Assembly: GCA_963835925.1 (NCBI GenBank)
Contig: CAWIHH010000004.1
Coordinates: 83,358 to 147,357, forward strand
Length of the DNA stretch: 64,000 bases
Direction: 5' to 3'
DNA from: Candidatus Bathyarchaeota archaeon
GTDB taxonomy: Archaea; Thermoproteota; Bathyarchaeia; 40CM-2-53-6
This document shows, in pieces, positions 31,478 to 57,043 of the stretch; positions within the stretch are counted from its first letter, which is position 1, and every line of letters begins with the position of its first letter. The notes under the pieces are model-generated. The model was given only the letters and a program-made list of their open reading frames with translations. It was not told the DNA's origin and made no database searches. The position numbers were made by a program, and so were the translations under genes.

Positions 31478-31530
31478 TTAGTGTGTGAGCCAGGTGGTGC
31501 GCGTCACACACAAAATTGGAGTTCAAATTA
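31478..31530. repeat. Composite intergenic repeat, copy F
   Basis: tTTAGTGTGTGAgccaGGTGGTGCGCgTCACACACaaaattggaGTTCAAATTa: an 8-bp stem GTGTGTGA/TCACACAC around the GGTGCGC core, plus a TTCAAAT module. Confidence 0.65.
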
Positions 31531-32470: not shown

Positions 32471-32528
32471 GTGATTTGAACCGTGATTTAGTGTGTGGGT
32501 ATAGCTGGTGCGCACCAGCCCGCACCAC
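32471..32528. repeat. Composite intergenic repeat, copy B
   Basis: GTGATTTGAACCGTGAtTTAGTGTGTGGGTATAGCTGGTGCGCACCAGCccgcacc. Contains the perfect 16-bp palindrome GCTGGTGCGCACCAGC (32504-32519). Confidence 0.7.
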
Positions 32529-33382
32529 CAAGATTACTTTCTTCACATCAAATGATGTCGTGCTAGTCAAGGTTTCAGCGTTCATTTTAGATGTACTTTG
32601 ATACTAAGCCGAGTATGCCACCAAGGCCGCCTGCGATCAGCCCTATCACAATGAGAACAATAGCCCAAGTGAGGTCGGCAACACATTTAGCGCCATAGAT
32701 AGCAACAAGGCGAGAACGATTTCAATGATCCCCCAAAAAGATCCACCAAAGGCAAAATACAAGCGGGCGAGAAAGATCGGGAAATCTACTTCTATTGTGA
32801 ATCCAGATGAGTGAGTAGCAAGAGGTGCGGACTGCCAGTCACCAAACCGTTTGCCGCGCTCTCTAGGCACCAAACGACAATGAAGCGTTACCTGTATTCG
32901 TAATCTTTCTAGCTATGGCGAGTATAGCACTACTCCTATGTCTGTACACATCAAGCGTAGGTTTGTTTCCCGTGCGATTCCTGAAGGTGAACGTCCCTAC
33001 AGTTCCACTCGACTGCTGAAATCCTATCCTGGTGGAGACACCGGAGACAATTTTGACGCGGCAGTGAGGGACAATGTTTCAATGTGCGAGCAAGGGCGTG
33101 ACACAACAGTAATGTTCAACGGAAAAAAGAAACAATGGGAGCTACGAGAGTGGATTCCGCTCTGAAGCTGGCAAGGGACCAAGAAAGAGGACAGGCTTCT
33201 CCACCTTCCTAACTGCGAGAGTTCCCTTTTTCTCTTTAGGCATAGCTATTCATTCAGTATTCTATATCAAGATTCATTTATTATTTGTGTGTGCGTACCA
33301 GCGTACTGAAAACTCTCGAGCGAGGATTGCGAGCATCTTAACAACGTAGTGATCAAGACCTGAAAGAGAGGAATCTGCATTC

Positions 33383-44097: not shown

Positions 44098-44146
44098 GTG
44101 ATTAGGTGGAGTGTGGTGTTGGTTCAGAGGTTAGTGGTGCGCACGC
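44098..44146. repeat. Composite intergenic repeat, degenerate copy E
   Basis: GTGATTaggtggaGTGTGGTGttggttcagaggttaGTGGTGCGCACgcg, just 3' of gene 44182..45702. Confidence 0.4.
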
Positions 44147-44181
44147 GCAAAGAAGTGAGTAGCTTTCGATGTCGACTGTCG

Positions 44182-45702
44182 CTATCCACTTGGCTTCTTA
44201 CGTTTCATCATGAAAATTAGAGTTAGGGCGATAACGATCGCTACGAGAACAGCAGGCAGGATTACCATGCTGGTTCCTATCGAGAACATGGGCGGAACAA
44301 CGCTAGTTGGCGAGGATGAGCTAGTTACTTTCGGAAGAATCGACGTTGATGTCTTTGATGATGCTGTCTGGGTTGATGTGGGTTGTGGAGGGACCAGTTC
44401 AAGGTGCGCCTGTTGGATGGCATCTGGGAAGGCGATCGCATCAGGCGGCAAGGCTTCGATGTAGTTCGCCCGCAGGCTGTTGGTTTTGCCAAGCGGGTAG
44501 ATCCCAACTTCAAGGAGCGCAAGGTAGGTCTTGGAGTCGCACAACCCAGGGTTCTCAGCACTTCCGGAGCAGGCCGCTCGCTCGAATTTGTCTAAATCGT
44601 TGGTCTGAAATCCAATCATGGTTCTCCAGGTCTGTGCGGCGTAGACCACATAGGGGGACGCGGGGGAACTAAAATCCAGCCACTGAAACGATACCGACAG
44701 TCGGCCTGCAAATTTCCTGCTCGCCAGTGCCAGCAGCGGCGCGTTCTGGTCCGTAACATTAGAAGTGTTGAGGCAGACACCGGTGACGTAATTCGGATTA
44801 TTTCGGTCCTTAGGCCAAGGGGGTTGGTAAGCGCAGCCGTTGTCATCAATCGCGGGAAACGGATAATCTAGGTTTCTTGCCTCCGAGGGTGTGGGGATGA
44901 CTTCCACGCCGAAATACTTGTCGGGGAAATTCCTCTGAAAAGAATTTGTAAGTTTGTCCCAAGCGTCAAGCAGTCTGGATGGCCTATAAGGCGGCGTTGC
45001 CTTCAGCCAGGCCTCTAAGGAGTTGGTGACACAAGGGTCGGCAAGGATCTCCGCCGGCAACCGCAGCTCGGAGGTGGTCCGGTCGATTCCCGTAATCCGG
45101 ACCGATGTCAGAGCGCTATAGGTTCCGGTACTCTTGAGATGCGCCGCTACTGCGGCAAGCATGGAATCCCATTCGCTGAGAAAGATCGGCTCCCAAGGAG
45201 CCGCGATGGTTTCCGAATTGCACTTAGACTCCCCGACGCCTGCATGAGGAGAGACGAGGAACCTTAGTGGGGCGGCCCCGGCATATGATTTCGTGTATCC
45301 GGCGCCACACTCGGGCGATTGAAACAGCCAGCACGGCGTATCTTGCCCCGCTCTGATCGCCAAGGCAACCTGCTTGCCTGACGAAACCGCCATACTCATC
45401 CAGTGATCTAGCAGCGTCCAATCATATGCCCCCCTGCTAGGCTCGATGACCTCCCAACCCAGAAGCAGCGTGAGTCCGTCAACGCCGCGCACGGTGAGCG
45501 CTTGCGTCAGCTGCTGCGCATATTGCGGATCCTGAAGATGCTCGGTAAGATGCTCGCTGTAGACATAAATGCCGCGCGGCTCAACCACTGATGCCTGCAC
45601 ATCATTAACTGAAATTGCGATCGTTGAAACTTCTGGAGTCACCAGAAGAATCAGCGCAGCAACAACTACTATTCTTGTCAACCGAACATGAAATCGCAGC
45701 AA
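44182..45702 (-). CDS. Secreted TIM-barrel glycoside-hydrolase-like protein with S/T-rich stalk and C-terminal TM anchor
   Basis: Signal peptide; W-x-x-IEP-x-x-G-x-YDW motif (LLLGWEVIEPSRGAYDWTLLDHW) typical of GH42/GH5-like enzymes; PTSTQTASSKTSTS linker; TM helix plus KRKKPSG tail. Confidence 0.5.
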   Translation of the reverse strand: MLRFHVRLTRIVVVAALILLVTPEVSTIAISVNDVQASVVEPRGIYVYSEHLTEHLQDPQYAQQLTQALTVRGVDGLTLLLGWEVIEPSRGAYDWTLLDHWMSMAVSSGKQVALAIRAGQDTPCWLFQSPECGAGYTKSYAGAAPLRFLVSPHAGVGESKCNSETIAAPWEPIFLSEWDSMLAAVAAHLKSTGTYSALTSVRITGIDRTTSELRLPAEILADPCVTNSLEAWLKATPPYRPSRLLDAWDKLTNSFQRNFPDKYFGVEVIPTPSEARNLDYPFPAIDDNGCAYQPPWPKDRNNPNYVTGVCLNTSNVTDQNAPLLALASRKFAGRLSVSFQWLDFSSPASPYVVYAAQTWRTMIGFQTNDLDKFERAACSGSAENPGLCDSKTYLALLEVGIYPLGKTNSLRANYIEALPPDAIAFPDAIQQAHLELVPPQPTSTQTASSKTSTSILPKVTSSSSPTSVVPPMFSIGTSMVILPAVLVAIVIALTLIFMMKRKKPSG

Positions 45703-45846
45703 GAATATCCCTTAATCATTTTTGAACGCGCGTTTGGCGTTCTCAGAAAATGTGCCAATCGCAATGATTCGCGGGGTTGCGATCTCAATTTCACCCATCG
45801 CGATTGCGATTGAGTTTTGGTTCCCGCAACTCCGACATTGAACTGC

Positions 45847-47406
45847 CTAGCTTTTTTGGCTTTGAGCTGCTTGCGCTGGTCCTCTTGGTTTCCTGCGCAT
45901 TGACACGATGAAAGCTGCACCGACCAGTATAATGATGGCTGCGAGTATCAGCAGGCTGTTTTGCTGGAGCGTGCTCATCAGATCGCCGCCCTGCGTGGTT
46001 GAGGTTTGGGTGCTTCGCCTGGTTGAGCTTGCTCGCGTCTTCGTCTCTGCGGTTTGCGTCTGTGATCCAACGTTCAGAACTAGGTTGGCGACTCGGTTCA
46101 GTCCACCGCCCGTCCCCTTAACTTCCAACGTGAACGAGCCAGCGGGCGTGTTCGCGGGAAGCGTAACCGTAAGCGCAGACGCAAAGTTGGGAGTGCCAGA
46201 TGTGGTGGTGAAGACTCCGTTGGCGCCTGAGGGTAATCCTGATACGGAAAGTGAGACTTGGGAGTTGAAACCGTTCAAGGCGACCACATTGATCTGGTAT
46301 GTGGTTGTCACTCCTTGAGTCGTTGTCTGGGACGGTGGGTTCACGTCGATTCTGAAATCCGGCGACTGCCCAACTGTTAACGTGAACGTTGTAGAGTGTG
46401 ATGTTGCCCCAGCGGTGCCCGTGATCGTCAACGCATACTGCCCGGAAGCCACGGACCCGGTTGTTGTAATGGAGAGTATCGAACTGAAGCTCGGCTTCCC
46501 AGAGGTCGGATTCAACGACGCAGAAACCCCAGCCGGAGCGCCAGAAACAGTCAAAGCCACGTTCTGCGACGTTCCTGACACGAGGCCCACAGTGACCGTG
46601 GATGTTGCGCTTCCCCCGGGCGCGATGGTCTGCTGCGCTGGCGAAGCCGAGATGGAGAAGTCGAACGGCTGCAATGCCTGCACCGTCACTAGACCTTTCG
46701 CCTGATGCACCACGCCCTTCGCAGAACCGGTAAGAGTAATGGAGTAGCCACCGGACGGAGTTGAGCTGGAAGTCGAAACCCGCAGAGTGGGCGGGTTAGG
46801 AATCACCTGATAATTCATCCCCGGCCCCAAACCCGACACCTGAATGTCGATAGACGTACCACTGTACGACGAGTCACTGTACGATATGAGAACCTGAAAC
46901 GTCGCGGTCTCACCCTGCTTAACCGCGACACTAGGCGGAGAGAGCCCGAGACTGAAATCGAAAGGAGCAGTCGAACCAGCCACTTGGAAGCTTGCAGCTC
47001 CCTCCGCTATTGGGTTGTTGACTCCTCCTGGCTCATCGACTGTCACAAGGGCATCATATGTTCCGGGAGTGCTGATGCCGGGAGGGTACACTTCGTAATC
47101 CAATCCGGGTCCAACTTTCATGGTTCCGCTCTGCCAAAGGTCTGAACAAGTTGGACAGGTTCGAATATGCACCGTGGTAGTTTCGGAGCCACCCCATTGA
47201 ATATTGCCAGTATCTTGGATCCAGAAAGCAACCATGAACGATTTGCCTACGGGCACAGGTGCCGGACTAACAGATACGTGGACTATTGCCGCATTTACCG
47301 TTCTCGCAGCACCGCCCACCAACACGACCAACAGGAGCAAAATCACTAGACCGGATTTGACTCGCAAACCCCTTACGCAACTCTCACTCTCGTGAGCGAC
47401 AATCAC
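45847..47406 (-). CDS. Cell-surface protein with three tandem ~95-aa Ig-like repeats, S/T stalk and C-terminal TM anchor
   Basis: Signal peptide; three repeats each beginning (P)FDFS/DFRI...SP...V..G and ending ...TLTV / LVLNV; TM helix plus RRKPRGP tail. Confidence 0.6.
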   Translation of the reverse strand: MIVAHESESCVRGLRVKSGLVILLLLVVLVGGAARTVNAAIVHVSVSPAPVPVGKSFMVAFWIQDTGNIQWGGSETTTVHIRTCPTCSDLWQSGTMKVGPGLDYEVYPPGISTPGTYDALVTVDEPGGVNNPIAEGAASFQVAGSTAPFDFSLGLSPPSVAVKQGETATFQVLISYSDSSYSGTSIDIQVSGLGPGMNYQVIPNPPTLRVSTSSSTPSGGYSITLTGSAKGVVHQAKGLVTVQALQPFDFSISASPAQQTIAPGGSATSTVTVGLVSGTSQNVALTVSGAPAGVSASLNPTSGKPSFSSILSITTTGSVASGQYALTITGTAGATSHSTTFTLTVGQSPDFRIDVNPPSQTTTQGVTTTYQINVVALNGFNSQVSLSVSGLPSGANGVFTTTSGTPNFASALTVTLPANTPAGSFTLEVKGTGGGLNRVANLVLNVGSQTQTAETKTRASSTRRSTQTSTTQGGDLMSTLQQNSLLILAAIIILVGAAFIVSMRRKPRGPAQAAQSQKS

Positions 47407-47602
47407 TGAGCCGCGAAAGCTATTTGAGACTTTGCACGAACCTTCCAGAAATTGAGGGAAGAACGAAGTCGCTGTTCATCGAAACTCCCACGAATCCAAA
47501 CGCGTTCAACAGATCGTCAATCCCTCTAGTTGTTCGAATTTCTGACGAACGCTGAACACAACAAGACCCGACCATATCACGCAACAGCAAAAAATTTGTT
47601 AT

Positions 47603-49207
47603 TTGAACAAAGTGAACATGAAATCGTCGTGGGTACGTGTCAGCTCGCCCAATGCAAAGCTTTTGTTTCTCCTCACAACATTCTTCCATGCAGGAATAGT
47701 TTTCAGATTGGCTTATCCGTTATGGATATTGCTGCTGCTGGCATTGGTTCTTCCCAGCAATGTCTGGCAGGCGGCTGATGCGCAGGCAACGGTGACCGCG
47801 CCTACGATTAGCTACTCGCTCAGCTCTCCCGTCACCTTCGCGACGCACACCGAGCTTGAGAGCTATGGCTTCTCATTTGGCCCCTCGGATGGCCAGTTCG
47901 GAGCAATACCCGCGGGCGGCGCAAGCTACACGTTTTACGGCACGGCTGGTTCTAGGTCCAGGCCTTCGTGCGCAGGAACCCCTAACGTCAAAGGCGCGTT
48001 TACGTTTACTGGTACGCTCGATCGTGTGACCGGAAGCAACGGTTGCACGAGACTGTTCGGTCCAGGGGATGGTCCGTCGGGATGGATCTTCGACAGGGAT
48101 TATGCCGGTGGCGGTCAAGTTGTGCGCTTCGAGAGTGGAGGCAAGAAGGGATGGCTGATGCCCTTCCATGGAGAGGTCTGGTGGCAGAATCCGGCCTCGT
48201 CGGATCACAAGTGCGACGTTTCGGGAAACTCTGGCCTAAGGGTTGACTGCTTCTACTCCTCACTCGGGTTGGCGGTGTCGACAGACGACGGAAAGACCTT
48301 CAGAGTCGTGGGGGAGATTCTCCAGCCCAGCCAACCGATGTCAGTCTTCGTCGGAGGCGGCGCGAACATGATGGTTGGTTACGGCTCGTTGGTCGTTGCC
48401 GACGCGAACGGCAAGCACCTCGATAGCCCATCCGTAGACCTGAAAGGCGCCTATTTCTATCTTTTCTACACCGACTTTCTGCCAGGTTTGCCCGGCGTGT
48501 GCGCCGCCGCAATTTGCATGGGCGTTGCACGCGCACCCTACGCCGATGTGGTCGCGGCTGCACTCTCTAACGATCCACACAAGCTCGCGATGACGTTCCA
48601 CAAGTACGATGGCGCCTCACCGAATCCCTGGACCCAACCCGCCACCAGCGACACCTCAGACTTGTCGGGGACTGCTGGAAGGTACGCGCCTCTCTGGACA
48701 GACGAAGCAGGAGGCGCTGAGGTAATCTACGACAGTACCTTCAACGTGTACCTCGCCGTGCTCAATACCATCGCAGGTGTTAGGGTCCGAGCCTCAAGTG
48801 ATCTGATCCATTGGTCGGGCCCAATTGGCCCCGCATACGATGAAGCAGGCCGCACGCTGTATTATCCAACTCTCCTCGGCGAAACTGGAGATCCAACGAT
48901 TGGAGGTCCTGCACCGCGAATCTACTTCGAAAGCCTACCCGCACGATCCCTTCCAGAGGAAGGAACACCGACCTTGGAGAGCTTGCAACTGAACCTTTCG
49001 TCCCAAACGTCACTCTCAACTGCGACGACTGCAAGGACTAGCACATCGGTCTCTAGTCCTGCATCAGTATCAAGTACCGAGATGTCAAACTCCCCGTATC
49101 ACTGGCAAAACGAGATTGGTTTAATCGTGATCGTCGCAGTGGTTTTAGCCGTTATTCTCGGCGGCATTTTCGTTTTGCGAAAACGAGGTGAGAAGTCGGA
49201 GAGCTAG
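47603..49207 (+). CDS. Secreted protein (possible beta-propeller glycosidase-like) with S/T stalk and C-terminal TM anchor
   Basis: Signal peptide (LWILLLLALVLPSNVWQAADA), beta-rich body, SSQTSLSTATTARTSTSVSS linker, TM helix plus RKRGEKSES tail. Family not assignable by eye. Confidence 0.45.
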   Translation: MNKVNMKSSWVRVSSPNAKLLFLLTTFFHAGIVFRLAYPLWILLLLALVLPSNVWQAADAQATVTAPTISYSLSSPVTFATHTELESYGFSFGPSDGQFGAIPAGGASYTFYGTAGSRSRPSCAGTPNVKGAFTFTGTLDRVTGSNGCTRLFGPGDGPSGWIFDRDYAGGGQVVRFESGGKKGWLMPFHGEVWWQNPASSDHKCDVSGNSGLRVDCFYSSLGLAVSTDDGKTFRVVGEILQPSQPMSVFVGGGANMMVGYGSLVVADANGKHLDSPSVDLKGAYFYLFYTDFLPGLPGVCAAAICMGVARAPYADVVAAALSNDPHKLAMTFHKYDGASPNPWTQPATSDTSDLSGTAGRYAPLWTDEAGGAEVIYDSTFNVYLAVLNTIAGVRVRASSDLIHWSGPIGPAYDEAGRTLYYPTLLGETGDPTIGGPAPRIYFESLPARSLPEEGTPTLESLQLNLSSQTSLSTATTARTSTSVSSPASVSSTEMSNSPYHWQNEIGLIVIVAVVLAVILGGIFVLRKRGEKSES

Positions 49208-50156
49208 CGTGGATTCTCACCACCACTCCATTCTTGACACTTCTATAGCGCCGCGACCTCAACATGTTTCGCGGCAGAATTGCACTCAACTAAGAAGGCA
49301 GATCTCATCAACAGGAAGCGCTGCTTTTCCTGTTCCCACACAAGTGAATTGTGTCGAGGAGCTTTCACCAGAAGACAGTTTGTCTTAGTTCCAATTGCAC
49401 GAACATGGCGGAAAACAGGCCGTCGCAGATTCTACATGTATTGGCTGAGGTGAGATCTGTTCGGGTAGCCAATACGGAACAGGGCGGATAGTAATATCTG
49501 ATATCAAGAATCAATCAAGCACGGAGAAGCAGGTCGGTAGACGTTCAATCTTAAAGTGGATTGGAGCAGTTACGGCAGCCACAATCGTGGGCGAAGTCGA
49601 AAGCTACGAGGCAAGCCAACCTTTCAGGCCGGTTAGAACGGTAACAGATACCACTTTTATCAAGACAACAACTACTAGCATTTACTCGAGTACACCTAGC
49701 ACGACCCTATCTGGTACTCCAGCTAGGGACCTACGACCCGTGATCAATCAGATCGGCCTGAGGGTTCGCACTCAAACCACGGCGCACCATGCACGGTTCA
49801 CGCGTTAGCCTTTCTACTAGAATACATGTATGCGACCCGCCTTGTCTCCGACCTATCGGAAGAGTACCTGCAATACGTCACCTTTCAAGTCGAGGGACCC
49901 CCGATGAAGGGAGAAGAGAATTTCTGGGCTCTGAATATTGGCTATCAGAAGGGGGGGGTAGTCCCGCAGACCTTTCTCGCCAATCAAAACAAAGTTCCAA
50001 CAAGCATTCAAAATACGATCCTCGAAATGAGAAGGAGCGGAATGCGCTTCAATCCGGTATTCATCAGGAACTGGGATTCAACGACCGGTGCCACTCAGGG
50101 CCAGCTCAAGTAAGCAATCAAATATTTAGATCAGAACATTCCGTACCGGAGACAAA

Positions 50157-51380
50157 GTGAAAGTTGGATCCTTGGAAGTTGAACCGATCCATGTTGACCA
50201 TTCAGTACCAGGCGCTTACGGATTCATAATTCACACAACTGAAGGCGCAGTAATCTACTCCGGAGACTTCCGAATACATGGCACCAAATCTGAAATGACT
50301 CGTGACTTCGTGAAGGCCGCTGCTGAAAACAAACCCATAGCCATGCTTTGTGAAGGCACGAACCTGATCGGAGCTGATTTCTCAACTGAGCACGAGGTCA
50401 ATGAAAAGATAAACAAAGTCGTCGGCACGACACAGAATTTAGTGCTTGCCAGCTTCCGTCATACGGACGTTGATCGCACAAGGACCCTGTTTGAAGTTGC
50501 AAAACGCAACCAACGCAAACTCGCGATTTCTCTCCGACAGGCGTACATGTTGAACAAACTCAAGGCAGACAAGAATCTTGACCTGCCAGCTGTTGACTCG
50601 AAGGATTTTCTGATCTTCAAACGCGAAAAGAAATCGTACTTCAAGTGGGAGAAGGCTATCTTAGATTTCCCAAACGCCGTAGATGCACAGGAAGTGAAAC
50701 GAATGCAGAGCAAAGTCATCCTTGCGACAGGTTTCTCCGACCTCAAGGAATTAGTTGACATGCATCCAATGCAGAGCGACCCGTTTTGGAGGCAGAAGTC
50801 CACAAAATCTGCGAACAGACGAAGAATCCTGACTGCCCTGACTGAAGCTGGTCAGACCTTCGGCGAGTTGGAGAGGAAGGTGGAGTTGTCACGTCCCGTA
50901 CTAAGCATCTACATGAAGGAATTGGAGAAGGCCGGCGAGGTTGCTCGCCAAATCAAAGGTAGACGGATCGAGTACGTTCTTACGGACAAAGGAAAAGGCC
51001 AGGAGAGAATGCGCCGAGAATCAATTGCGAAGGCGTTTCAGGTAGTAGGGCAACTCACACGAAATTACTCTTCGGCGAAGTCTATGCTGGAAATCGCTGA
51101 GTTTGCGAAAGAGTCGCCAGAGTTCTTTGCAGAATTTCTGCAGTGGATGACTGATTATATGACTCTGGTATTGAGCGATGACACTCTGCGATGGCTTAGA
51201 AGACATAGAGATGGAAGCGGGAAATTGCTCCAGGCAGAGGTAATGAAGAAATTGGCGCCATTCATCAAAGAGATACATGCCGATTCAGAAGATGACCCAA
51301 AGAAAGTGATGTCGATCTTTCAAAATCTACTCAATTCAATGAAAGAAGTCATATCGGAAACAGGTGGAACTCGACCATGA
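50157..51380 (+). CDS. Chimeric protein: internal fragment of an RNase J-like MBL/beta-CASP nuclease fused to an ArsR-like wHTH and a helical C-terminal domain
   Basis: Residues 1-~210 match the RNase J region spanning motif 3 (VDHSVPGAYGF), motif 4 (YSGDFRIHG) and beta-CASP motif A (LCEGTNL). The HxHxDH motif and the C-terminal MBL half are absent. The wHTH reads RRILTALTEAGQTFGELERKVELSRPVLSIYMKELEKAGEV. GTG start; an in-frame stop lies 30 nt upstream. Confidence 0.55.
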   Translation: MKVGSLEVEPIHVDHSVPGAYGFIIHTTEGAVIYSGDFRIHGTKSEMTRDFVKAAAENKPIAMLCEGTNLIGADFSTEHEVNEKINKVVGTTQNLVLASFRHTDVDRTRTLFEVAKRNQRKLAISLRQAYMLNKLKADKNLDLPAVDSKDFLIFKREKKSYFKWEKAILDFPNAVDAQEVKRMQSKVILATGFSDLKELVDMHPMQSDPFWRQKSTKSANRRRILTALTEAGQTFGELERKVELSRPVLSIYMKELEKAGEVARQIKGRRIEYVLTDKGKGQERMRRESIAKAFQVVGQLTRNYSSAKSMLEIAEFAKESPEFFAEFLQWMTDYMTLVLSDDTLRWLRRHRDGSGKLLQAEVMKKLAPFIKEIHADSEDDPKKVMSIFQNLLNSMKEVISETGGTRP

Positions 51381-52621
51381 ATCCTCTTCATCTTTCAGGT
51401 TGGGGTGTGAAAATCCGCGCCAACAATCTCAAGTCAAGATCTGAGCTTGAAGTCATAAATGGACGAGAAGATGGTAGAGCTGAATCATCGAATGGTTTTC
51501 GTCCTCGACGTTTCCCCTACAGCAGCATAATTATTGATGGACACAGCGGATACATTTCATTGCAGGCGTTTCACTGGCTGTCGAAGCATAAAGTTCCTGT
51601 TTTTGTAATTGGCTTCGACGGCACCATCATCTCTAGTATTCTTCCTCCGATTCCTGTGAAGGCTGATGTTAGGGCTGCGCAGTTCCAAGCTGCTAGTGAT
51701 CCGAAGAAGAGGTTCAAGATTGCTAGAGCGCTTGTTCAGGCGAAGATTGCTAGGAGCTTGCAGGTTTTGGATTGGTTGGGTGAACGTTATGATATTCATA
51801 GAGAGATTTGGGTAACGAAGCTTGAGGCATCAAAACTCAGAACAGCAAACACTGTTCCTGACTTGCGAGTGGTGGAAGGACGTGTGGCTAGGCGCTACTG
51901 GGAAGCATTCGGTAAGGTGATGCCTGAACATCTCGACTTTCAGGGTCGTATGACTTCGAGTCATCAGAATAATGCGTCTGATCCGGTGAACTTGGCGTTG
52001 AATTACGCTTACGGAGTTCTTGAAGGGGAATGCAGGCGAGCAATCAACGCAGTGGGGTTAGAGCCGTCGGTGGGGTTCTTACATGATTTCAGTGATTATC
52101 AAACGAAGCAGTCGTTGGTTTATGATTTGCAGGAGCCGTTCAGATGGCTTTCCGACATGTCCGTTATCGGGGCGTTTGAGTCGGAGGCTTTGAAGCTTTC
52201 AGATTTCTACTTCACGGGGGATGATTACAGGTATCGCTTTCAGCCTGAGGCGAGGCAGCGATTCATCGACATTGTTCGTGAACGATTCAATTCAGGTGCA
52301 AGCTACAGGGGGCGGGTTCTGAAGTGGGATACGGTCATTGAACAGAAGACAACCGAACTCGGACGGATGCTGGTAAATAGAACACGTACAATTGATTTTT
52401 CTGATCCTGAAATCAAGCTGCTAAGGCATGACGATCGCGAGCTGAGAGCAAGAATCCTCTCTCTTAGCCAGTCTGAAGCAAGAAAGCGTGGCATTGGGAA
52501 AAGCACACTCCACTACTTGAGAAAGAATGTCTCGCGTGGCGGCTCTTTCAGGGTTCATGAGCAAATTCGACAGAAAATCGTGGTCTGTAATTCAAGTTCA
52601 TCAGGGCTACAACAGGAGTGA
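51377..52621 (+). CDS. cas1: Stand-alone Cas1-family integrase with C-terminal HTH (casposase-like architecture)
   Basis: N-terminal beta domain (YISLQAFHWLSKHKVPVFVIGFDGTII). Catalytic core with E (VVEGRVARRYWEAF), H (DPVNLALNYAYGVLEGE...GLEPSVGFLHD) and D/E (SLVYDLQEPFRWLSD). C-terminal HTH (LSQSEARKRGIGKSTLHYLRKN). ATGA overlap with the upstream gene. Confidence 0.85.
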   Translation: MNPLHLSGWGVKIRANNLKSRSELEVINGREDGRAESSNGFRPRRFPYSSIIIDGHSGYISLQAFHWLSKHKVPVFVIGFDGTIISSILPPIPVKADVRAAQFQAASDPKKRFKIARALVQAKIARSLQVLDWLGERYDIHREIWVTKLEASKLRTANTVPDLRVVEGRVARRYWEAFGKVMPEHLDFQGRMTSSHQNNASDPVNLALNYAYGVLEGECRRAINAVGLEPSVGFLHDFSDYQTKQSLVYDLQEPFRWLSDMSVIGAFESEALKLSDFYFTGDDYRYRFQPEARQRFIDIVRERFNSGASYRGRVLKWDTVIEQKTTELGRMLVNRTRTIDFSDPEIKLLRHDDRELRARILSLSQSEARKRGIGKSTLHYLRKNVSRGGSFRVHEQIRQKIVVCNSSSSGLQQE

Positions 52622-53291
52622 AGATTCATTCTTGAAGATCCCAAACGCTGGGAATATTGACGCAGCCAAGAAAATACGCGCGGAACTGACATGGATCTAC
52701 GTGGACGAAGTCCTCTACAGAGAATTCGAGCGATTGAAGGAAAACATAAACTCACGTGATGTGGCGTACAAGGTTGTCATGGTGGACAGTTTGCACAACT
52801 GCAGACTAGCGATGGATCCGTGGGAAGTTGCGGGCTTGATAATCGGTGCCAAGGTGGATGAAAAATTCGATCGCGTTGAGCCAGCGACCTTGGTTGGAGA
52901 GATTGCCAACATGGAAATCAAGAAAGTTGGCAAAAGAAGAAGATTGAATCTGGGTCCAGTCTTCTCTAGCAAGTTTTGCCACTTTCATCGCCCTAAGCGA
53001 TTCGCCATCTACGACAAGTTCGCCGACAAAGCTCTAGGAGACCTGCTGGAGCGCCAAGGGAAATTCAGTTATGCAGAATTCCAGTTGTCACTTGACAAGT
53101 TGATTCGGGAAGCTAATCCGCCTCCAAATTACAAGGAAATTGACGTTTACCTCTGGCTCTACGGGCAATGGCTGGACTATAATGGCGGCAACCGAGTGTC
53201 GAGTGAAATCAAGGAAGCCATTTCGAGACAGCGCGAACTTTTCTCACAGCTCTACCCGACCCACGCTGATAACAAGAATTGTGGCCCTTAG
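52527..53291 (+). CDS. Hypothetical protein (start uncertain; may begin after the cas1 stop, e.g. TTG near 52633)
   Basis: 254-aa ORF. The first 31 codons overlap cas1 in another frame. Contains an SSKFCHFHRPKRFAIYDKFA segment. No family recognised. Confidence 0.5.
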   Translation: MSRVAALSGFMSKFDRKSWSVIQVHQGYNRSEDSFLKIPNAGNIDAAKKIRAELTWIYVDEVLYREFERLKENINSRDVAYKVVMVDSLHNCRLAMDPWEVAGLIIGAKVDEKFDRVEPATLVGEIANMEIKKVGKRRRLNLGPVFSSKFCHFHRPKRFAIYDKFADKALGDLLERQGKFSYAEFQLSLDKLIREANPPPNYKEIDVYLWLYGQWLDYNGGNRVSSEIKEAISRQRELFSQLYPTHADNKNCGP

Positions 53292-53418
53292 TCAGTCGGA
53301 GGCAGAACAGCTTGGTATTGGGAGGAGTACTCTCCATTACTTGCGCCGCGATGCAGAGAATGCCCTGTCGCTCAGAGTGCCCTCAAGAATTCGAGATAAG
53401 ATTGGAAGAGTAAGCTAG
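53266..53418 (+). pseudogene. Remnant of a second Cas1-type C-terminal HTH tail
   Basis: Own translation LITRIVALSQSEAEQLGIGRSTLHYLRRDAENALSLRVPSRIRDKIGRVS* aligns with the Cas1 tail LRARILSLSQSEARKRGIGKSTLHYLRKNVSRGGSFRVHEQIRQKIVV (about half identical). No upstream Cas1 body in this frame. Confidence 0.55.
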
Positions 53419-54903
53419 TTGGAAATGGATTTCCGAATTCAGTTCCTAGACATAGACCAAAGCACTTTGAAATCAGTACCTGACTTGCTTTATCCAGTAA
53501 TCTGGGAGCAAGTCAACAGTTTCAAGAAACGATGCTTGGGAGCAGAGCCAGAACGGACAGGTAAAGCGCTCCCTCTAGTACTAGCTATCAGGAATCCTAG
53601 TGTCCAGTCAGCTAGTGGAGTACTGAAGATTCAGCTAATTATCCCTGGATGGGAGAATGAGAAAGGATCAACTCTTTCGATGGATGCAGATTGTCCTTTT
53701 CAGGAAGTCAACGCAGGTGAAACCAAAGAGATTGTGCTCATGGAGGTGTCGAATATTCCTCTACTCAGAATGTACCTTAGGACTGCTGAATTCTACAAGT
53801 CCGGCAAACGCGTAGAGGCAAAGATGACAGGTCATCGTAGTTTCGTTTTCAAGACCACAGGTGATTTCTTAATCTCTTCGGCGTCAAGCAAGATTGAGGA
53901 TAAAGAAGATGAGCGCAACATTGAACGCATAGAACATGAAATCGGTTTCGAGAATTATTTCCTCCTCAAGACCTACTTGGATTTGCCAGTCTATGAAAGA
54001 GGCATCATTCTCAGAGTCTTATTCGACCGCATGGAGGACATACTGAAAGGCCGCGTACTTGCAGATTCGACTCCTGACAGAAAGGCGGCCATACAACACC
54101 TGTTGCAAATTGAAATAATCTCAAAGATTTGCATGATGATCGAGGACCTAGGACTCTTCTCTGTATCAATGCGAACAGGAATCAAGGAGCTGTGTAACAT
54201 ATTCCTTGATGAAGGTAGCAGCAATAAGGTCGGCCAATTCTACAGGGACCTCGATGAATTAAACGGTGAAGATTTTCTTAGAGTTCTATCCTTTCCGACC
54301 GCAGACTCGCTTCGTCTGTCCGCATCGGACTATGAAGTAGTGAACAAAGTGCTTCAGAGCGTACAACAGGAAGCTAGACGAGTATACCACGAAATAGCAA
54401 AATTCAGAAAACAGCACTGGACCTTGTACAATAAGTACAAACATGGATTCGCAATCATCCCGTACGTGCAAAAAACTGCGGGAAACATAGATTTCTTGGC
54501 CGATGTGGAGTCTGCAGTCTTCGTCCTACATGACAAAAGATCACCTTTGAAGGAAGTCATAACTGTTCCTTACAGTGCGAGAATCCTAGAAGCGTATAGG
54601 ATTCTGATCGTTGGGATTCAAGCCCTTCTGAAGAACGTCCTTGAGAACCAGCTTAATCTTCTGGAGAATCCGAATTTGATCAATCTGCCGATGCCCAGTG
54701 AGAGTCTGACGGCAGATGAACGTTCACGATATGCAGCAGTAACGAAGAGATTCCAACCAGCAAAGGAAACAAATCGAGATCATCGAATACACGTCAGAGC
54801 TTTTGCAAAGAAAGATGACCTGAAATGGTATGCGGACTTGCCAAAGTTCTTGGAAGAAAGTGCAGAAAGGGGTAAGCGCGAACAGTCGAGCAGATCAGAT
54901 TAG
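53419..54903 (+). CDS. Hypothetical 494-aa protein (beta-rich N-terminal domain, helical C-terminal domain)
   Basis: Long intact ORF immediately after the HTH remnant. Likely ATG at 53425. No family recognised. Confidence 0.5.
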   Translation: MEMDFRIQFLDIDQSTLKSVPDLLYPVIWEQVNSFKKRCLGAEPERTGKALPLVLAIRNPSVQSASGVLKIQLIIPGWENEKGSTLSMDADCPFQEVNAGETKEIVLMEVSNIPLLRMYLRTAEFYKSGKRVEAKMTGHRSFVFKTTGDFLISSASSKIEDKEDERNIERIEHEIGFENYFLLKTYLDLPVYERGIILRVLFDRMEDILKGRVLADSTPDRKAAIQHLLQIEIISKICMMIEDLGLFSVSMRTGIKELCNIFLDEGSSNKVGQFYRDLDELNGEDFLRVLSFPTADSLRLSASDYEVVNKVLQSVQQEARRVYHEIAKFRKQHWTLYNKYKHGFAIIPYVQKTAGNIDFLADVESAVFVLHDKRSPLKEVITVPYSARILEAYRILIVGIQALLKNVLENQLNLLENPNLINLPMPSESLTADERSRYAAVTKRFQPAKETNRDHRIHVRAFAKKDDLKWYADLPKFLEESAERGKREQSSRSD

Positions 54904-54960
54904 TGATTTTCTCCTTAGCGCGGGGCTCTTGGTGCTGGCGTCGTTGTTCGTCGTTAGGAA

Positions 54961-55027
54961 AGTGTGTGTGGGTCTACTGGTGCGGCCGATTGAATTTGAA
55001 CCGGCCTTGTTTTCATGTGTGTGTTTT
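54961..55027. repeat. Composite intergenic repeat, copy D
   Basis: aGTGTGTGTGGGTCTACTGGTGCGGccgattGAATTTGAACCGGccttgttttcatGTGTGTGTt, lying between convergent genes 53419..54903 and 55034..56656. Confidence 0.65.
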
Positions 55028-55033
55028 CAGCGT

Positions 55034-56656
55034 TTAGGTTTTTGTTGGGTGTTTGCGGCGTAACAAGTACACACCAACAGCCACGACAGCTACCGCGACG
55101 ACCGCCGCAACTATCAAAGTATTGCTGGGCGCGCCCGTTACGATGGGTTTAGTCGTAGTCTCGCTGGAAGTCATCGCCTTTGCCGTAGTGAGACGAGTAA
55201 TGCCCTGCGACGGCAATGTGATTACGAAGTTCTGTTGCCTCGTGTAGGTGCTGTTCGACAACTGCTGGACGTGAATGCTGAGGTTACTTCGCTGGCCACT
55301 CGAGGCCGTAACGGTCACCGTGTAGTAACCAGCAAACCCACGAAAACCAATCTGACCCTTATCATCAGTCAACGCGCTGCCCTTCGTCCTGAACATTTGC
55401 ATCAACCCCAGAAAGACGGAATATGATTGTCTCAGATCGCCGCCCTGTGTGAAAAGACCCATTTCATCAAATTCACCCGCCTTTCCCTGCGTTTGAATGT
55501 CAACCATAGTTAGGAGATGATCACCTAAGGTGTTGTCCATTCCGAACGGAAGCGTAGCCATGTACTTCACCCAGTCCGCTTGCATGGTTTCATCATAGGT
55601 CGTCCCCCACGCCGTCCAATGGCAACTTTGACAGTCGTATGCCGGGTAGCCTCCTTCCTGAATGAAGACTCCCTTGCCGAGGCTTTGCAGTTGCTGAATC
55701 TTTGCTTTATAGAATGAAGGTGTGTGATTCTCATTCTCGTTGGGCGGACCACCCGGATAGGCTTCGACAGAGAACCCGTCCACTCGAAGACCGCTGACGA
55801 GAGCCATGTGAGCAAAATCATAGGGCGAAAAATGTCCACGTGAAGCAACATAGCGCCCCGCATAGGAACTCCCGCTCAAGTCAAAACCAACCATCAAGAG
55901 AACCTTCGCATCCTGCTGTGCATCTCTAATTGCTTGAACCTCAACCCGGTCGACATCGATAGAGTTCTGCATATTTCCCATCAGAACTGTCCAAGATGGG
56001 TCTAGGTCAGGTTCCGTCTCCGTAATCCAATAGTCCACCATGTTTCCATAACGCTTCACGTTCTGGTAGACGTAATCATACAAATCCTTCTTGAACTGGT
56101 CGAAGACAGCGGGATTTGACAATTGTTGCATGTTAGCCCAGGCTGGATAGCTCGGATACGGATCATAGGGATCCGCCTCGGCGAGAGTGCGAAAGACTAT
56201 GATGAAACGCGCCGTGGGGCAGAGGCTGCGTTCTTGTTTGAAAGGGTTGTCATACGCATCCCAACGGTAGACGCCTCTTTGAGGCTCGACTTGGGGCCAT
56301 TGGTTCCAGATCAACTTTATCGTGGCGTTCATGAATGTACACAAATCGCTGTAGGTTTTTTGGGCCTGAGGATTATTCTCGGCTGCTCTGGCAAATCCCT
56401 CAAAACCGAACTTGAAATCGTGGCTGGTCTGTTGGTAGGAGACATTCAGATTCTTGACCGGATGGCCCGACGAGTCCAGAACGGTAATGGTAACACCATT
56501 CTTGCGATGCTGCTCAATATACTGCAACGCCTGCTGATACGCAGCCTCCTCTTGAGTCAGGTCAGGAGGTTGCCCCCAAACTCGAAACGGAATCACACCC
56601 ACCAGAACCAGTGTTATCAGACAAATCGCGAGAACGAGCTTCCAGTGAAAGGACAA
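55034..56656 (-). CDS. Secreted TIM-barrel glycoside-hydrolase-like protein (GH10/GH5-like) with beta-sandwich domain, S/T stalk and C-terminal TM anchor
   Basis: Signal peptide; FKFGFEG...WNQWPQVEPQRGVYRWD motif; carboxypeptidase-regulatory-like segment (GFAGYYTVTVTASSG); TM helix plus RRKHPTKT tail. Confidence 0.5.
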   Translation of the reverse strand: MSFHWKLVLAICLITLVLVGVIPFRVWGQPPDLTQEEAAYQQALQYIEQHRKNGVTITVLDSSGHPVKNLNVSYQQTSHDFKFGFEGFARAAENNPQAQKTYSDLCTFMNATIKLIWNQWPQVEPQRGVYRWDAYDNPFKQERSLCPTARFIIVFRTLAEADPYDPYPSYPAWANMQQLSNPAVFDQFKKDLYDYVYQNVKRYGNMVDYWITETEPDLDPSWTVLMGNMQNSIDVDRVEVQAIRDAQQDAKVLLMVGFDLSGSSYAGRYVASRGHFSPYDFAHMALVSGLRVDGFSVEAYPGGPPNENENHTPSFYKAKIQQLQSLGKGVFIQEGGYPAYDCQSCHWTAWGTTYDETMQADWVKYMATLPFGMDNTLGDHLLTMVDIQTQGKAGEFDEMGLFTQGGDLRQSYSVFLGLMQMFRTKGSALTDDKGQIGFRGFAGYYTVTVTASSGQRSNLSIHVQQLSNSTYTRQQNFVITLPSQGITRLTTAKAMTSSETTTKPIVTGAPSNTLIVAAVVAVAVVAVGVYLLRRKHPTKT

Positions 56657-56879: not shown

Positions 56880-56979
56880 CGTGATTTGAACCGTTAGGTT
56901 GGTAGTTTTCTGTGTGTGTGTGCGCACCAGCTATACCACACACAGAGAAAAATTCCTGAACGACGACGGTTCAAATTCA
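56880..56979. repeat. Composite intergenic repeat, copy C (complete palindromic form, MITE-like)
   Basis: Outer inverted repeat TGATTTGAACCGT (56881-93) / ACGGTTCAAATTCA (56965-78). Inner 10-bp perfect stem TCTGTGTGTG / CACACACAGA around TGTGCGCACCAGCTATAC. The core is the reverse complement of copy B. Confidence 0.7.
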
Positions 56980-57043
56980 TTCAAGTGGAAGAAGAATAGG
57001 CAGGTGAGAAAAAGAAGGGAATGAACTTCTGGTGGCAGAAGGT

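Follow-up and report, generated by a model that had tools for sequence, protein, structure and literature searches.

The window analysed here is a stretch of 64,000 nucleotides (nt) from Candidatus Bathyarchaeota archaeon (assembly GCA_963835925.1, contig CAWIHH010000004.1), and the locus under study within it holds the gene for a casposase, the Cas1-family integrase of a casposon, followed by a second, orphan copy of the casposase tail. The findings suggested that this locus represents two tandem, polymerase-less, family-2-like casposons (E1 and E2) that were fused by deletion, a reading to which we assign a probability of roughly 0.78. The features on which it is built are listed below, in positions of the window.

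51377..52621, plus strand: intact casposase of the Cas1 family, 414 amino acids (aa), with a C-terminal helix-turn-helix (HTH) domain; copy A, assigned to E1.
52442..52584, plus strand: first copy of the repeat, the HTH-coding tail of the intact casposase, aa 356-402 (BLASTP, MAFFT and nucleotide alignment).
52629..53291, plus strand: cargo gene 1, HI_0787_N family, ~220 aa from TTG 52629 (called from 52527 as a 254-aa open reading frame, ORF); homologs P0002-P0007.
53263..53265, unstranded: putative fusion junction between E1 (end of the cargo-1 coding sequence) and E2 (casposase codon ~356), from DNA alignment of the assembled sequence.
53266..53418, plus strand: orphan tail, the eroded 3' end (aa ~356-405 and stop) of a second casposase paralog, assigned to E2.
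53425..54903, plus strand: cargo gene 2, 492 aa from ATG 53425 (494 aa from TTG 53419); homologs P0009-P0011, 80-90% identity.

The preliminary description of this DNA had reported a Cas1 tail repeated at about half identity in protein and two-thirds in nucleotides, and formal alignment gave significant values of 57% and 61.5%, respectively. When the Cas1 C-terminus was compared by BLASTP with the 92-aa frame holding the orphan copy, Cas1 aa 356-401 (52442-52584) matched 53266-53403 at 26 of 46 residues (E 9e-16), and 88 of 143 nt were identical in an ungapped alignment of 52442-52584 with 53266-53408. The two tails, which were also aligned with MAFFT, gave a local alignment score of 38, whereas 2000 shuffles reached 14 at most. 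A casposase hidden Markov model (HMM) retrieved the orphan piece independently (model positions 341-403, E 5.6e-10); its GIGRSTLHYLR motif was unbroken, and its frame ended in the TAG at 53416-53418. No Cas1-like sequence was found 5' of the orphan tail, the match being limited to aa 356-401, and the DNA 5' of it was cargo-1 coding sequence up to the junction; therefore, the tail is not the C-terminus of a longer frameshifted gene, a possibility that had been raised against the repeat.

Compared with the casposase paralogs of the genome, the orphan tail was 40-57% identical, and the adjacent Cas1 (57%) was no closer than the others. Equal distance to every paralog excludes a recent duplication, in agreement with the earlier remark that the divergence spoke against a simple one. 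Near-identical copies that are each other's closest relatives, as a target-site duplication (TSD) would leave, were likewise not what was found, given the identities above, and the repeat is neither a TSD nor a recombination site.

The orphan tail was inherited together with the gene downstream of it. Cargo-2 orthologs in loci L068-70 were 90% identical to the window gene and were preceded by the same tail cut ~45-50 nt shorter, homology to the window beginning at ~53311-53316, inside the tail, as compared with the window cut at 53266. Between the window and L068, the shared tail was 80% identical with differences spread over codon positions as 9/6/7, whereas cargo 2 was 91% identical with differences of 29/25/73. 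By this measure, cargo 2 appears to be under purifying selection and the tail appears to evolve neutrally. Near-invariance was confined to the last ~30 nt before the cargo-2 start, and the ribosome-binding and start region of cargo 2 lies within the tail. As the tail was co-inherited with cargo 2 in L068-70 and is decaying, it is the worn 3' end of a casposase gene that once preceded cargo 2, cut differently among genomes, and is now decaying non-coding DNA that forms the upstream leader of cargo 2. In L071, the gene directly ahead of a cargo-2 homolog (84% identical) was a casposase fragment (aa 212-405) from another lineage, and an element end, (TG)n / CGCACCA, lay 75 nt past the cargo-2 stop. 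When L071:6410-8706 was aligned with window 53266-54970, the cargo was joined to a tail only 44% identical, with the homology break ~10 nt inside the cargo start. This combination points to an exchange of cargo modules between casposon lineages.

The left side of the junction was defined by the homologs of cargo 1 (n=7, 196-215 aa, from public metagenomes), all of which were tagged Pfam PF27257 (HI_0787_N). These proteins start with MK(I/T)PN, corresponding to TTG 52629, 8 nt past the cas1 stop (52621) and with GGAGTG just 5' of it. Therefore, of the two overlaps with the repeat copies originally described for the 254-aa ORF, the 3' one stood, and the 5' one, 95 nt within cas1, was an artefact of calling the longest ORF. 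The homologs finish in ...LYPT*, whereas the window gene has lost its own stop codon and 3' flank and reads 9 extra codons (HADNKNCGP) into the orphan tail, which places the junction at 53263-53265: homology to the cargo-1 orthologs ends after ...CTCTACCCGACC, and cas1 homology begins at 53266.

Cargo-1 orthologs were also found behind casposase genes truncated to other lengths. In L042-45, the ortholog (76-78% identical) directly followed a casposase cut to aa 186-404, which was 72% identical to that of the window and was preceded by the housekeeping genes tsaD-bud32-ham1; in L046/47, the casposase ahead of it was down to its final 32 codons (aa 383-414). DNA homology between the L042/L046 loci and the window was continuous across the casposase/cargo junction, and in L042/L046 the cargo-1 stop was followed, after ~30 nt, by an element end, (TG)n / CGCACCA... 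/ (CA)n. From these comparisons, cargo 1 belongs with the intact casposase. The 3' flank of cargo 1 in L042/L046 was also considered as a decayed Cas1 tail; only a 7-mer and scattered matches were seen by eye, and the flank is casposon terminus plus target. In an empty-site check for the L042 insertion, the tsaD-bud32-ham1 genes were located on contig C6 of the genome that holds the window, and the genes downstream in L042 had no match there. Apart from a 33-aa scrap, homologs of cargo 1 (254-aa gene) in 60 related genomes and of cargo 2 (494-aa gene) in 22 same-genus genomes were not found, and neither window cargo gene had a match in Pfam, NCBIfam or PADLOC.

The window genome (2.35 Mb in 6 contigs; Bathyarchaeia) contained ~16 places matching the casposase, 5 of them full-length and 11 fragments. 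The other full-length copies were 81, 76, 42 and 39% identical to the window casposase, and DNA homology between copies was restricted to the cas1 ORF. Nine fragments lacked the 5' end and ran to ~aa 401, starting at aa 62, 102, 148, 162, 197, 246, 340, 356 and 372; there was no fragment with the 5' end only. By hand tally in 61 related genomes, ~38 fragments retained the 3' end as opposed to ~2 with only the 5' end, and the truncation points were spread over aa 101-363, becoming denser towards the end. The orphan tail matches this widespread 5'-truncated pattern and is therefore one case of a very common relic. In 8 of 12 tail-only relics, an ORF of 250 aa or more, read in the same direction, began within 40 nt of the tail stop, and in all nine A-type copies the downstream gene started between -95 and +19 nt relative to the cas1 stop, the genes differing from copy to copy. 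The suggestion that two related Cas1 elements had recombined, leaving only the tail of the second, was supported: the tail resembles the adjacent Cas1 no more than it does the other paralogs, it travels with its downstream gene, and dozens of like relics exist.

The intact casposase was recognized as Cas_Cas1 by Pfam (1.9e-52), and NCBIfam also called Cas1. Its closest solved structure by far was PDB 6OPM (E 7e-74, aa 6-401, C-terminal HTH included), which we take to be the Methanosarcina mazei family-2 casposase, and the VEG, GFLH and YDLQEPFR segments of the two proteins were identically aligned. On these grounds, the window Cas1 is classified as a family-2-type casposase. Its named relatives in public records were all from Bathyarchaeia metagenome-assembled genomes from peat and soil. 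The gene directly upstream is as follows.

50157..51380, plus strand: 407-aa gene directly 5' of cas1; N-terminal ~210 aa a 5'-truncated RNase J/beta-CASP fragment, C-terminal half a winged HTH (wHTH).

Pfam placed an HxlR/ArsR-type HTH at aa 216-280 of this protein, NCBIfam an RNase J match at aa 4-192 that covered profile positions 125-294 only, and PADLOC a Csa3-like wHTH. A wHTH gene is the usual upstream partner of these casposase genes, other full-length copies having differing ones of 212-285 aa, and the 407-aa gene is probably itself a deletion fusion. RNase J-like paralogs were also seen 8-10 kb from two further casposase copies (C5:285725, C1:312778). No Cas2/Cas4 family match was found among the scanned neighbouring ORFs at 50157-54903, and no search of the whole window for CRISPR or tandem repeats was made.

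Downstream of cargo 2, starting 59 nt past the stop of the 494-aa gene, the element end and its target were located as follows.

54962..54970, plus strand: casposon terminus (GT)n, GTGTGTGTG; same as the L021/L024 ends (CACACA...TGTGTG) and the genome-wide end/target profile.
54971..54984, plus strand: 14-nt integration target/TSD copy, GGTCTACTGGTGCG (reverse complement of a tRNA 3' end, ...CGCACCA...), from the TSDs of L021, L023 and L024 and a motif search.
54985..55006, minus strand: tRNA T-loop-like leader, GGCCGGTTCAAATTCAATCGGC, adjoining the target; no tRNA gene called by ARAGORN.

Read continuously, 54962-55006 is ...GGAAAGTGTGTGTG / GGTCTACTGGTGCG / GCCGATTGAATTTGAACCGGCC. The target of the casposase would be GGCCGGTTCAAATTCAATCGGC + CGCACCAGTAGACC. 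In comparison, the A. boonei casposase target consists of the TSD segment plus the T-loop-coding segment of tRNA-Pro (PMC9939771). It had been supposed that the cas1 3' end might be a recombination hotspot bound by its own HTH; this was not borne out, as the real integration target of these elements appears, from their duplications, to be the 14-bp site beside the tRNA T-loop-like sequence. For eight copies (A, B, C, D, G, H, I and L), the end/target repeat closest to cas1 was found on its downstream side, at 1.5-6 kb and always in one orientation; the one closest to copy F was inverted, with another of the shared orientation 2.9 kb downstream. From these positions, the casposase gene faces the terminus on the leader side and is separated from it by one or a few cargo genes.

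Repeats of this kind, ~45-70 nt long and often in tandem, were present in >100 copies in the genome and consisted of a (GT)n terminus, a 14-nt target (GGTATNNNTGGTGCG type) and a T-loop-like segment (GAATTTGAACCGTCG...). They occurred at window 54939-55006 and 56912-56980 and in clusters at C4:640-672 kb, C4:884-893 kb, C5:245-270 kb and C3:118-124 kb. This repeat looks like a graveyard of casposon ends, or like stubs from repeated insertion into the target copy near an element end. A gene for a 540-aa secreted glycosidase-like protein (55034-56656, minus strand) lay between oppositely oriented end/target motifs (54962-55025 and 56909-56968), and this segment may be a cargo remnant or trapped host DNA. 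Junctions of the same kind were seen at 31480-31515 (...GTGTGTG / AGCCAGGTGGTGCG / CGTCACACACAAAA) and 32480-32530 (GTGTGTG / GGTATAGCTGGTGCG / CACCAGCCCGCACCA), so that casposon ends are present also 20 kb upstream of the repeated tail. A GC-rich block (44182-49207; 54-56%, as compared with ~48% in its surroundings) encoded three secreted proteins with paralogs near casposase copies B, I and J, and the degenerate "target + CACGCGC" motif seen at 44128-44148 may mark where an element once had its distal end. A repeat at 49493-49648, with four other matches, was rejected as an element end; it is the coding region of a Tat-type signal peptide.

Complete elements with terminal inverted repeats were seen only at loci of other genomes. 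L024 had perfect 65-bp terminal inverted repeats starting CACACACACACAG and a 14-bp TSD, CCCACCACGATTTC, directly at the 3' end of tRNA-Pro(GGG); L021 had perfect 40-bp terminal inverted repeats and a 14-bp TSD, CCACAGCTGGTGAG; and L023 had 50-bp terminal inverted repeats (92%) with a 14-bp TSD, GGTCAGCTGGTGCG, and adjoined the (TG)n end of another element. The window itself has the target and T-loop-like leader and no functional tRNA gene. L024 and L021 were ~9 kb each, and inside their terminal inverted repeats no family B DNA polymerase (PolB) domain and no ORF >525 aa was found, the largest ORF of L024 being 437 aa. In the window genome, PF00136 matched only at C4:425829 and C5:302722 and PF03175 only at C4:956660; all three sites were more than 9 kb from any A-type copy. 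The cargo of L021/L024 (regions L021:7333-8907, L024:5590-6741 and L024:13253-14047) was of defence type: immediately after the casposase came a TIR-domain protein that PADLOC recognized as ThsB-like (PDC-S66, 1.2e-61), and there were also a TOPRIM protein of OLD type and a protein whose HEPN match in Pfam was weak and fell below threshold (E 6e-4; 20.3 bits, cut-off 22). No description of polymerase-less or non-autonomous casposons, or of casposons in Bathyarchaeota, was found in the literature searched.

A protein-primed PolB (PF03175) was seen ~10.5 kb from the frameshifted casposase copy K, a member of a 42-43% identity clade (C4:956660-957331 and C4:967881-968892), and could be what remains of a polymerase-bearing casposon of another family. 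Near six casposase copies or relics (E, F, J, M, N and O), at distances of up to 9 kb, lay apparently paralogous pairs of ~900-aa and ~200-aa genes (molybdopterin oxidoreductase/4Fe-4S-like, by eye), reflecting either shared variable genome regions or frequent cargo. The large neighbour family near many relics had been a candidate for PolB and was rejected, as the sequences, read by eye with no family scan, carry a Tat signal and a Cys-rich partner and look like molybdopterin oxidoreductases with 4Fe-4S partners.

Two loci bridged the gap between complete elements and the window. L016 contained a full casposase, cargo, ~1.3 kb, the sequence (TG)n / 14-nt target / (CA)n, ~80 nt, a casposase reduced to aa 170-402, and cargo; it is two tandem elements sharing one duplication, the second internally deleted. 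L056 comprised a host gene, casposase aa 274-404, cargo, a tail of aa 332-403, two further cargo genes and an element end, with gaps of 12, 3, 13 and 2 nt, and is the end state with the same tight packing as the window.

By analogy with these loci, the window would once have held two casposons in tandem at a tRNA-like integration site, in the order E1-TSD-E2. The wHTH gene, the intact casposase and the HI_0787_N cargo would be what is left of E1, and the last ~50 codons of a different casposase, cargo 2 and the terminus abutting the 14-nt target and T-loop-like leader would be what is left of E2. One or more deletions, beginning after the final amino-acid codon of cargo 1 and reaching into the E2 casposase gene as far as codon ~355, would have removed the E1 terminus, the shared TSD, the other E2 terminus, the left-hand genes of E2 and most of its cas1. 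The tail would then persist between two selected genes, holding the ribosome-binding and start region of cargo 2, as deletions into either gene would be purged. With cargo under selection, wedged DNA would shrink by small exact deletions, and the 5' half of cas1 and the genes upstream would be lost in large ones; cargo kept by selection would therefore bias relics towards surviving 3' ends.

Several observations weigh against this reading. The tandem ancestor was derived from other loci and was not seen at the window, and the fusion junction is that of the assembled sequence. The neutrality of the tail was judged from 22 substitutions only. A second, distal terminus of the composite element had no convincing partner in repeat and motif searches, and the candidate at 44142 (GGTTAGTGGTGCG / CACGCGC) was degenerate and unconvincing. 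Furthermore, the 69-113 nt upstream of cargo 1 were conserved at 70-76%, as compared with 81-83% for cargo 1 itself, so this leader was not better kept; support for a regulatory role is limited to the ~30 nt directly ahead of cargo 2, which hardly vary. Searches around the window copy for inverted and direct repeats, and around the five full-length copies of the genome for terminal inverted repeats, returned chance-level matches only.

Long interspersed (LINE) elements and T-DNA are known to arrive in genomes truncated, and E2 might similarly have arrived without its 5' part, through a one-ended or abortive integration in which the leader-proximal end was joined and the other junction was made by illegitimate repair inside E2. 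The retention, in all truncated copies, of the terminus facing the T-loop-like leader would be expected from such a process, as would the single orientation of the nearest repeat downstream of eight copies. Genome-wide, "(TG)n + target" junctions outnumbered "target + (CA)n" junctions by 160 to 33, an asymmetry that may in part be a detection effect, since the repeat profile favours the leader-side end. The proposed model of casposon integration also passes through a half-site intermediate (review PMC9939771). However, E1 too has lost its stop codon, 3' flank and terminus at the left junction, so that a deletion is needed in any case, and the truncated casposase of L016 still lies ~80 nt from the other terminus, as left by an internal deletion and not by a truncated insertion. 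We therefore regard abortive integration as unlikely.

Transposons can also encode shortened regulators, such as IS1 InsA and the P-element KP repressor, and the tail could have been kept as a functional mini-gene, either an HTH-only repressor peptide binding casposon ends or a short ORF coupling cargo-2 translation. Eleven tail-only relics begin at model positions 331-346 and so include the whole HTH domain; the L056 tail reads as a clean ORF of 74 codons beginning with TTG, 13 and 2 nt from its neighbours; and in the window a GTG lies at 53281, 8 nt before the cargo-1 stop, ahead of the unbroken motif described above. The even spread of codon-position differences from L068, at an identity below that of the cargo, is not what a kept peptide would show. 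The first helix region is wholly lost in L068, L046 retains nothing but its last 32 codons, there is no start codon at the window homology boundary, and the orphan tail scored 40 bits as compared with 53-75 for other tail-only pieces. A retained mini-gene thus seems quite improbable.

An insertion of the 254-aa gene as a site-specific cassette, or a long TSD, at the 3' end of a single cas1, as the preliminary description had also proposed, would account for the position of that gene exactly between the copies, for the variable genes starting close to the cas1 stop in the A-type copies and for the break at the cargo start in L071, but is highly improbable: the two copies are no closer to each other than to other paralogs, truncation points vary continuously in place of a single fixed, integron-like site, orthologous units are cut at different positions (L068 ~45-50 nt further in), cargo-1 orthologs end in a casposon terminus with no Cas1 tail downstream, and the target demonstrated for the family is the tRNA-like 14-mer.

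Preferring the fusion of two tandem casposons, we compared the elements with known systems. The closest are the family 2 casposons, AciBoo-C1 of Aciduliprofundum boonei and MetMaz of Methanosarcina mazei (Krupovic et al. 2014, PMC4046053; review PMC9939771), with which they share a casposase with a C-terminal HTH, terminal inverted repeats (in the relatives), and tandem pile-up at a single site. Target and duplication length also match, with a 14-bp TSD and integration at a tRNA 3' end (tRNA-Pro in L024) by the T-loop-coding segment (PMC4046053; PMC9939771). They differ in that the family B DNA polymerase that marks self-synthesis was absent from L021, from L024 and from the surroundings of the A-type copies; in their high copy number (~16 casposase genes or relics and >100 end/target repeats per genome); in the variable cargo gene directly behind the casposase; and in that the window element is a decayed fusion and not an intact transposon. 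Membership of the Cas1 family (Pfam PF01867; TIGR00287) is shared with CRISPR-associated Cas1 and with group-1 Cas1-solo proteins. The latter lack the full set of catalytic residues and are restricted to Methanomicrobiales (PMC4046053), whereas the window protein retains the motifs and is closest to casposases; unlike CRISPR-associated Cas1, it had no Cas2/Cas4 match among the scanned neighbours.

The decay itself resembles that of other DNA transposons. Ds elements derived from Ac and the deletion derivatives of P elements are internally deleted and non-autonomous; here too the transposase is lost by deletion while terminus and passenger are left, and L016 keeps both termini around its truncated casposase. 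Unlike in those derivatives, the 3' end of the transposase gene almost always survives the deletions together with the downstream cargo, likely because the cargo is useful to the host. Displaced 3' gene ends also flank other integrated elements, as in the tRNA 3'-end repeats at genomic islands and the split int gene of SSV-type proviruses, where the att-site repeats are short, near-identical and made by integration itself. In the window, foreign DNA is likewise flanked on both sides by copies of a 3' gene fragment, but the two tails are of low identity and come from two paralogous genes.

Taken alone, the repeated tail is an ordinary pseudogene scar that changes nothing; the polymerase-less casposon family around it is of more interest. 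This family of Cas1-driven transposons is large, occurs in Bathyarchaeia of soil and peat, uses the canonical family-2 target and has no polymerase, although self-synthesis is part of the definition of casposons. For annotation, the findings serve as a warning that "orphan HTH" ORFs and over-long ORF calls beside cas1-solo genes are relics and artefacts. A broader proposal, possible but doubtful, is that the polymerase-less casposons of Bathyarchaeia could in general fuse, gather and shuffle cargo, including some defence genes, by inserting in tandem at a tRNA-like leader and then undergoing internal deletions. The composites would keep one casposase and two usable ends, truncated cas1 tails ahead of cargo genes would be fusion scars, and a Cas1 integrase would use the array to acquire genes at a leader, much as spacers are acquired but on the scale of whole genes. 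The decay pattern is reproducible: loss of the integrase gene proceeds from the 5' side, and what remains is the cargo that follows it and the terminus on the leader side. It offers a view of hosts that would retain the passenger genes of transposons and discard the transposase, and of neighbouring elements that may merge their cargo.

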